From Thermoguttaceae bacterium (lineage in GTDB: Bacteria > Planctomycetota > Planctomycetia > Pirellulales > Thermoguttaceae), in NCBI GenBank assembly GCA_050943135.1, contig JBMNOP010000003.1, positions 166,191 through 230,190 on the forward strand: a stretch of DNA of 64,000 bases. The letters are read 5' to 3'. This document shows, piece after piece, positions 17,501 through 18,069 of this stretch. Below the pieces are notes generated by a model. It did not search any database. It saw only the letters and a program-made list of their open reading frames with translations, and was not told where the DNA came from. The stretch's first letter is position 1. Each line of letters starts with the position of its first letter. A program made the position numbers and the translations under genes.

Positions 17501-18069
17501 TCGCCGAGCTCAGGAATCGCCTCGAAACCCGCGAAAAAGAGCTTGAACAGATGCGTTCCCTCTCGAACAAGCCCCCGGTCGTGATGGGGGGGATCCTTCT
17601 GATCCCGAAAGGCCTGTTGGACAAGAAACGGGGGATTCCGGCCAACACGGCCGATGCCGAAGCGCGCAAAGCCGTCGAGGCGATCGCGATGAACCTGGTC
17701 ATGGAAACCGAGAGATCGTTCGGCCACACGGTGATCGACGTTTCCGCCGAGAAATGCGGTTGGGACATCACCGCCAGGCCGACCGCGAAAAACCCGGACG
17801 GGTCCGCGAAAGAGGATCGCCACATCGAGGTCAAAGGACGCCGCAAAGATGCTCCGACGATACTGTTCACGCACAACGAGGTCGTTTACGCGATGAATCA
17901 GCAAGATAAGTTCATTTTGGCGATCGTTCTTGTCGACGGAGATAAAGTCGAAGGCCCCTTCTATCTCCGTTGTCCGTTCAGCCGGGAACCCGATTTCGGC
18001 GTCGCGAGCGAAAACCGTTACCTCGACATCCTTCTGGATATGGCGGTCGCCCCGGAAGAGACCCTGTAA
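14545..18069 (+). CDS. SNF2/DEAH-family superfamily-2 helicase (1174 aa) with a C-terminal DUF3883-like PD-(D/E)xK nuclease-like module
   Basis: PHQ motif; motif I [12 protein letters not shown]; motif II [9 protein letters not shown]; motif III MMTATP; motif VI [11 protein letters not shown]. The C-terminal 120 aa contain GWDI...HIEVKGRR (D...ExK), typical of the DUF3883/restriction-endonuclease-like fold. Confidence 0.85.
   Translation: [1174 protein letters not shown]

Follow-up and report, generated by a model that had tools for sequence, protein, structure and literature searches.

A compact Hma system with a predicted PD-(D/E)xK nuclease at the C-terminus of its helicase in an uncultivated Thermoguttaceae bacterium

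Does the C-terminal end of a Swi2/Snf2 helicase, encoded in one cassette with a methyltransferase and an ATPase, carry a nuclease of its own, and is that nuclease the effector of the cassette? The question arose from a first-pass annotation of 64,000 nucleotides (nt) of an uncultivated Thermoguttaceae bacterium (assembly GCA_050943135.1, contig JBMNOP010000003.1, positions 166,191 to 230,190 of the forward strand), hereafter the window, in whose own numbering all coordinates below are given. We find that the region in question is very probably the NOV_C domain of HmaA, a predicted metal-dependent PD-(D/E)xK phosphodiesterase with a complete active site, belonging to an Hma system that resembles restriction–modification (R-M) systems in its logic.

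The helicase is encoded by an open reading frame (ORF) at 14545..18069 on the plus strand (stop codon included), which specifies a Swi2/Snf2 helicase-nuclease of 1174 amino acids (aa) that matches the PADLOC profile for HmaA (PDLC00659) with 1566.5 bits and an E value of 0, aa 1–1173 aligning to positions 1–1175 of the 1176 in the profile. The peptide strings quoted in the first-pass annotation are exact in this frame: HTVIDVS begins at aa 1061 (nt 17725) and FILAIV at aa 1123, while the motifs GWDI and IEVKG, in which catalytic residues had been suspected, occupy aa 1072–1075 (nt 17758–17769) and aa 1094–1098 (nt 17824–17838). The interval to which the nuclease had been assigned, nt 17700–18069, corresponds to aa 1053–1174 and the stop codon; it takes in most of the domain, whose beginning lies about 45 nt further upstream, with a helix (alpha-1) that starts at nt 17656. 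Because the identical protein occurs on the four contigs examined, from several samples, among them a 295-kb Joint Genome Institute (JGI) metagenome contig (3300060803, Ga0591958_0000025), the hmaA ORF is not an artefact of assembly.

We delimit the C-terminal PD-(D/E)xK nuclease domain as aa 1038–1174 (nt 17656..18066, plus strand). Within it, the Pfam family NOV_C (PF13020, formerly DUF3883) matches aa 1044–1135 (nt 17674–17949; profile positions 1–86 of 91) with 70.8 bits (E = 1.1e-19; gathering threshold 22.1), and the DUF3883 assignment first proposed from the motif pattern is therefore statistically solid, with a score far beyond that of a chance motif. PF13020 was likewise present in 120 of 120 homologues of the last 174 residues of HmaA, among the matches listed. 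A PDB sequence search with the same 174 residues returned a single match, to an NAD(P) transhydrogenase at E = 0.11, which we discarded as spurious.

An AlphaFold2 (AF2) model of aa 1001–1174, built on an alignment of 47 homologues, has a mean predicted local distance difference test (pLDDT) value of 89.1 and a predicted template modelling (pTM) score of 0.77. Its helices alpha-1 (aa 1038–1058) and alpha-2 (aa 1110–1118) and its six strands (aa 1062–65, 1074–78, 1092–1100, 1105–09, 1123–31 and 1134–42), which bear out the strand-rich context that had been remarked on, follow the alpha-beta-beta-beta-alpha-beta core topology of PD-(D/E)xK enzymes. D1074 opens strand beta-2, E1095 and K1097 lie within beta-3, E1112 is on alpha-2 and E1056 on alpha-1. 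In fold comparisons the model scored highest with Hjc resolvases (2wcw, 11.4; 1gef, 11.0; 1ob8, 9.5; 1hh1, 8.9), with I-Ssp6803I at 9.1, NhoI at 8.6, PvuII at 8.1 and 1y1o, annotated as a penicillin-binding protein-related factor A, at 8.0, and Foldseek ranked a SPARDA-complex chain and Hjc at the top. The restriction-endonuclease-like fold that the first-pass annotation expected was thus recovered by structure prediction, fold comparison and Foldseek alike.

The prominence of Hjc among these matches raises the question of whether the domain is instead a structure-selective nuclease of the Hjc kind, with branched or supercoiled intermediates of replication or recombination as its substrates, and not a restriction-type double-strand cutter of unmodified duplex DNA. 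The identity to Hjc is just 12–18%, however, and the restriction enzymes NhoI and PvuII score nearly as well; small nuclease domains often match Hjc first, since Hjc represents the minimal PD-(D/E)xK fold. Evidence for a dimer or for junction binding was not obtained. We regard this alternative as very unlikely, and return below to a biochemical result that speaks in its favour.

If the fold is that of a nuclease, is the active site intact? The candidate residues are E1056 (codon at 17710..17712), a conserved glutamate on alpha-1; the catalytic aspartate D1074 of GWDI (17764..17766); the ExK motif E1095-V1096-K1097 of IEVKG (17827..17835); and an additional conserved glutamate, E1112 of HNEV (17878..17880), all on the plus strand, so that the active-site set of HmaA reads E1056, D1074, E1095-x-K1097 and E1112. 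In the 47 homologues used for the model (51–61% identity), E1056, D1074, E1095 and K1097 never vary, and conservation of E1112 is 90% or more. We then sampled more widely, taking 150 representatives of 50%-identity clusters from 1.84 billion proteins (1234 hits at E ≤ 0.001), and found D1074 in 139 of 144, E1095 in 146 of 150, K1097 in 148 of 150, E1112 in all 149 and E1056 in 131 of 137. Among 23 full-length relatives (1116–1226 aa, 39–49% identity), D1074, E1095, V1096, K1097, G1098 and E1112 are invariant and E1056 is at least 90% conserved, and the catalytic residues persist in the HmaA of a Salinibacter metagenome-assembled genome (MAG) that is just 31% identical over the region. The assignment of GWDI and IEVKG as a D…ExK catalytic arrangement is borne out by all three sets, with D, E and K nearly universal among homologues.

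The activity of such a domain has been assayed in an orthologue, HmaA of Halomonas meridiana (Liu et al. 2024, PMC11232893), in which D1084, E1104, K1106 and E1121 are conserved. There, the substitution E1104A weakens defence against phage T4, which is lost altogether in a D/E/K/E quadruple mutant; the C-terminal 142 aa, once purified, nick pUC19 with Mn2+, less so in the quadruple mutant; and R610A, in motif VI of the motor, also abolishes defence. The view of the module as the effector of its cassette agrees with these results.

Upstream of the nuclease domain, HmaA carries an Snf2 motor at aa 119–609 (nt 14899..16371, plus strand), recognized as Pfam SNF2-rel_dom (aa 119–287, 63.2 bits, E = 2.7e-17) and Helicase_C (aa 511–609, 85.8 bits, E = 3.1e-24). 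A ResIII match of 57 bits is to a broad model and falls on the stretch that SNF2-rel_dom and DEAD also match. The motor motifs, I (GAGKT, 131–135), II (DETH, 226–229), III (TATP, 264–267) and VI (600–610), are intact, and invariant among the 23 full-length relatives. An AF2 model of the full-length protein (pLDDT 82.6, pTM 0.78) orders the chain as an N-terminal beta-barrel (aa 12–50), the Snf2 core, a middle region, a long helical hairpin (aa 912–1004) and the nuclease domain, a domain order consistent with the published description of Type-1 helicases. The middle region (about aa 647–890) is helical and alpha/beta in this model; the part from about aa 668 to 890 (window 16545–17214), which separates the Snf2 core from the coiled-coil hairpin, corresponds in position to where the 2026 BREX paper places an inactive restriction endonuclease (REase) and an alpha+beta domain. 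The closest solved structure to full-length HmaA is RapA, over the motor only, and since the full-length search finds solved relatives for the Snf2 motor alone, no structure of HmaA or of NOV_C has apparently been solved.

The two genes that follow hmaA complete the cassette. hmaB (18092..20998, plus strand) starts 22 nt past the hmaA stop and encodes a 968-aa DUF1156 amino-methyltransferase that matches the PADLOC HmaB profile over its full length (1555 bits, E = 0) and Pfam DUF1156 at E = 7e-30; its only other Pfam match is a sub-threshold one to D12 methyltransferase. Motif I (FAGGG, aa 139–143) and motif IV (DPPY, aa 562–565) stand some 420 residues apart, the signature of an amino-methyltransferase (N6-adenine or N4-cytosine) with a large insertion. 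In its text, the 2021 PADLOC paper describes HmaB as a 5-methylcytosine (m5C) methyltransferase, whereas PADLOC-DB and the 2026 paper have it as an adenine methylase; the HmaB sequence favours an adenine methylase over an m5C methyltransferase.

hmaC (21003..23870, plus strand) begins 4 nt past the hmaB stop and encodes a 955-aa DUF499 AAA+ ATPase (PADLOC HmaC 1221.8 bits, E = 0, aa 1–941 against profile positions 3–933 of 941; DUF499 is the only Pfam match) with a P-loop, GGGKT, at aa 83–87 and a Walker B motif, VILLDE, at aa 193–198. Toward its C-terminus, a low-complexity linker rich in Ser, Gly and Glu (around aa 830–870) leads into a terminal domain of some 85 aa; in ATPases of this type, the 2026 BREX paper calls the terminal domain hypervariable and RRM-like. 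An N-terminal HEPN RNase accompanies the ATPase in 1370 of 2446 Type-1 taxa (Rakesh & Krishnan 2026). We looked for one on HmaC and found none, the P-loop already standing at aa 83 and the HmaC profile aligning from residue 1; HmaC is thus of the canonical form that lacks HEPN, unlike the majority of Type-1 taxa. Pfam and PADLOC profiles detected no other nuclease domain in HmaB or HmaC.

All three genes point the same way and together span 9.3 kb (14545–23870); they are separated by 22 nt and 4 nt, and no other gene is embedded between them. The order hmaA–hmaB–hmaC recurs in the Salinibacter MAG relative (L001), the one genome with which we compared synteny beside published counts. The HmaC of this relative has an N-terminal extension of about 165 aa, and between its hmaA and hmaB lies a gene for a 309-aa protein with a weak match to the candidate defence profile PDC-S19 (E = 6e-12). 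Judged by their sequences, the three genes in the window are a complete, compact Hma system, the Type-1 DUF499-centred BREX-related system of current classification.

With HmaC lacking HEPN, the helicase nuclease is the sole recognizable nuclease of the cassette. This bears on a further reading, in which the REase-like fold would be a catalytically dead module for DNA binding or recognition while another protein does the cutting. Precedent for it comes from the additional, inactive REase-like domain in the same helicases and from the 21% of Type-1 helicases that lack a C-terminal nuclease and use neighbouring nucleases instead (Rakesh & Krishnan 2026). In HmaA, however, the catalytic positions are all intact and almost universally conserved, and the orthologous domain is an active nickase; nor is there another nuclease gene in or beside the cassette, HmaC being without HEPN and the nearby TatD-family gene lying on the opposite strand. 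A dead module is, to our mind, extremely improbable here.

What kind of system does this arrangement most resemble? Type III Res and Type I HsdR combine an ATP-dependent superfamily 2 (SF2) motor and a PD-(D/E)xK nuclease in one polypeptide, with the methyltransferase separate, and Type III Res has the same motor-then-nuclease order as HmaA. The fusion of translocase and nuclease, with the methyltransferase encoded apart, had been pointed out in the first-pass annotation and is what we find, motor and NOV_C sharing HmaA and HmaB having its own gene. Its comparison with Type I, III and ISP logic stands in part: the same R-M reading was given by Anantharaman et al. 2013 (PMC3710099) and by Rakesh & Krishnan 2026, and Type III and Type I are the closer parallels, whereas Type ISP, with its methyltransferase in the same polypeptide, makes a poor one. 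The resemblance to Res and HsdR is one of working logic only ("works like", not "is a"), for the motor here is of the Snf2 family, the methyltransferase is of the DUF1156, BREX-type-3-like kind and not a Mod or HsdM, HsdS is missing and there is an extra DUF499 AAA+ ATPase.

The published Type-1 architecture fits more closely. Both Anantharaman et al. 2013 (PMC3710099) and the Type-1 systems of Rakesh & Krishnan 2026 join an ATPase, an N6-methyltransferase and a Swi2/Snf2 helicase with a C-terminal PD-(D/E)xK REase, as here. H. meridiana SCSIO 43005 shares the PADLOC family of HmaA, the SNF2-rel_dom/Helicase_C/NOV_C architecture, and the hmaB (DUF1156) and hmaC (DUF499) partners; its hmaA, at 3,552 bp (about 1,180 codons), is similar in length to the hmaA described here, which encodes 1174 aa. 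The Halomonas locus differs in having Septu (ptuAB) and other genes between its hma genes, where the present locus has none, and in that its HmaA has been assayed, whereas the HmaA described here is known from the sequence of an uncultivated metagenomic organism.

A sister system is MANTIS (BREX-related, BR, type-2; Gao_RL, MtsA–D), described in a preprint of September 2026 (bioRxiv 10.64898/2026.09.23.753747). Its DUF499 ATPase and DUF1156 methyltransferase are homologous to those of the present cassette (PADLOC, 8e-38 and 7e-29) and it too has a helicase-nuclease effector. In MANTIS the DUF499 ATPase MtsA loads the methyltransferase, and phage restriction needs all four Mts proteins, including a helicase-nuclease of the phospholipase D (PLD) type, MtsD, whose nuclease activity has not yet been reconstituted in vitro (bioRxiv 10.64898/2026.09.23.753747). 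MANTIS is the best experimental precedent for an ATPase that acts as methyltransferase loader or regulator. It differs in its effector, a PLD nuclease on a SauUSI-like motor where HmaA has PD-(D/E)xK on an Snf2 motor, and in needing a fourth gene, the DUF3870 gene MtsB, which is absent from the operon here.

Other system labels were tried for the cassette and rejected. For MANTIS or BR type-2, the NCBIfam models scored far below their cut-offs (DUF1156_antiphage, 122.6 bits versus 1000; DUF499_antiphage, 158.1 versus 1200; phospholipD_antiphage, 175.8 versus 1100), and the PADLOC PLD_Helicase match on HmaA spans only the helicase C-lobe, with no PLD domain. DISARM was discarded on the score of NCBIfam DISARM_DrmD (384.5 bits against a cut-off of 610) and on the neighbours, which include AP_endonuc_2, TatD, CsrA and an autotransporter and no DUF1998 or PLD genes. 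BREX type 3, the closest evolutionary relative according to Rakesh & Krishnan 2026, gave partial BrxHII-profile matches of 314–323 bits, compared with 1566 for HmaA, and no PglZ or Brx protein was found among the called neighbours. Type I and Type III R-M were set aside in the absence of a specificity-subunit (HsdS) gene and of Mod, and the separate methyltransferase gene excludes Type ISP.

How might such a system work? We envisage that HmaB would mark host DNA by adenine methylation, probably after being loaded or activated by HmaC, an ORC/Cdc6-like AAA+ ATPase that is probably not a nuclease. Where invading DNA lacks this mark, HmaA would engage it or translocate with its Snf2 motor at the expense of ATP, and the tethered nuclease would nick and, with time, linearize that DNA, blocking phage propagation. 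An R-M-like model has been proposed for these systems in the literature (Rakesh & Krishnan 2026). The suggestion that the ATPase modulates activity and does not cleave DNA is plausible, given that HmaC has only DUF499, with no HEPN or other nuclease domain, and that the homologous MtsA loads the methyltransferase. While the present analysis establishes the domain's identity and fold, its conserved catalytic residues, the intact motifs and the operon structure, we infer the methylation-based discrimination of self from non-self, the role of HmaC and the coupling of cleavage to translocation.

Several observations weigh against this scheme. In E. coli, HmaA of H. meridiana was enough to protect against T4 without HmaB or HmaC, and it was non-toxic without HmaB (Liu et al. 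2024, PMC11232893); as HmaA alone defended, it is not established that the nuclease depends on the other members of the cassette. In the same study the isolated domain nicked supercoiled plasmid and left linear lambda DNA uncut. The searched literature contains no demonstration of HmaB methylation or of HmaC function for any Hma system. Finally, the transfer of the H. meridiana results is by way of a residue mapping (D1084, E1104, K1106, E1121, A1135 and V1137 to D1074, E1095, K1097, E1112, A1126 and V1128) made from constant offsets and shared profiles and not from a pairwise alignment; the D/ExK/E/A/V positions are conserved alike in the two proteins at near-constant offsets of −10, −9, −9, −9, −9 and −9, with an extra residue in the variable beta2–beta3 loop.

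The sufficiency of HmaA, its lack of toxicity without HmaB and the sparing of linear DNA keep two kinds of alternative in play, the structure-selective nickase discussed above and an autonomous sensor. In the latter, HmaA would be a single-protein defence of the Hna or Nhi kind, its helicase sensing a phage cue and releasing a nickase, with an abortive-infection-like or dormant outcome; HmaB and HmaC would be separable, the nuclease requiring neither direction nor restraint from them. Besides the absence of toxicity, Liu et al. 2024 report that protection against T4 was the same with p-hmaA alone as with hmaA-ptuAB, and that defence collapsed at a multiplicity of infection of 10, for which the authors' term is non-canonical abortive infection (Abi). 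That result is, however, heterologous, from E. coli and a single phage with modified DNA, and may not reflect native behaviour. The co-directional hma genes of the window, with their gaps of a few to some twenty nucleotides, speak for joint function instead, as do the conservation of the trio in 1,485 distinct systems and 2,446 taxa and the need of the sister system MANTIS for all its components in restriction. Hna, Nhi and DdmD themselves belong to other helicase families with other nuclease subfamilies, and have no operon with a methyltransferase or AAA+ ATPase. On balance we hold an autonomous HmaA to be unlikely. A composite of the two alternatives, in which NOV_C is a nickase of the Hjc kind, selective for topology or structure, and is used autonomously by HmaA on supercoiled or branched phage replication intermediates, with HmaB and HmaC separable, strikes us as quite unlikely.

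The genes surrounding the cassette are ordinary chromosomal ones, among them those for xylose-isomerase-like TIM-barrel proteins, a UvrA paralogue, a 3-methyladenine glycosylase, TatD, CsrA, an autotransporter, CarB, a rhamnosidase and NamZ. Around the cassette we found no tRNA genes and no Rfam hits as signs of a mobile island, and no flanking direct or inverted repeats beyond short matches at chance level; GC content is flat at 0.53–0.60. The lack of a compositional shift, tRNA genes, Rfam hits and repeats is consistent with the observation that Hma usually lies outside defence islands (Payne et al. 2024). A scan for promoters and terminators gave counts equal to the shuffled expectation.

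Just past the operon, 233 nt 3' of hmaC and on the same strand, a 109-aa ORF (24103–24432, plus strand) figures among the genes called on the source contig and has no Pfam match at E ≤ 0.1. The TatD-family hydrolase gene at 24504–25436 (minus strand; Pfam TatD 202 bits, QatD profile 37 bits) was considered as a nuclease of the cassette or as part of a Qat system, and dismissed: it lies on the opposite strand, its QatD score is weak, and a scan of six neighbouring proteins matched no other Qat component. Most likely it encodes an ordinary hydrolase of the TatD family. It is followed by a CsrA gene (25742–26008, plus strand). Two genes encode large, apparently surface-exposed or secreted proteins unrelated to the HmaA nuclease: an autotransporter of 1232 aa (26078–29776, minus strand) and a protein of 1045 aa in which a Reprolysin-like metallopeptidase domain is combined with Chlamydia PMP repeats (35706–38843, plus strand).

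On the other side, a few kilobases upstream of the hma cassette, the 3-methyladenine DNA glycosylase gene (Adenine_glyco; 7772–8416, minus strand) adjoins the gene for the UvrA-like paralogue (5219–7741, minus strand), a protein of about 840 aa with an ABC_tran and a UvrA DNA-binding domain. Between these and hmaA, two ORFs of about 1000 aa overlap on opposite strands, of which 9850–12780 (minus strand) is a called gene with a C-terminal xylose-isomerase-like TIM barrel; 9487–12735 (plus strand), whose translation is rich in Arg, Pro and Gly, has the look of a shadow ORF. The three hma genes are likewise overlapped by several long antisense ORFs of the same type.

The helicase–nuclease fusion that prompted our question is already known. 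Anantharaman et al. 2013 (PMC3710099) recognized DUF3883 on a helicase as a novel restriction-endonuclease domain and described operons pairing a DUF499 ATPase with R-M components; Payne et al. 2021 gave the trio its name, Hma, and Payne et al. 2024 put the number of distinct Hma systems at 1,485 and reported embedded genes in 62.7%. Rakesh & Krishnan 2026 reclassified Hma as Type-1 DUF499-centred BREX-related systems and recorded an active C-terminal PD-(D/E)xK REase in 1921 taxa, or 79% of Type-1 BR helicases. With the fusion predicted in 2013, tested in 2024 and catalogued in 2026, the HmaA described here is an ordinary orthologue, one more member of the family that adds no new biology. The value of the finding lies in the correct annotation of a complete, compact Hma system with intact catalytic motifs in an uncultivated bacterium. 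As a minimal locus, without HEPN and without embedded genes, it offers a clean construct with which protection by HmaB, the role of HmaC and the restraint of the nuclease could be tested.

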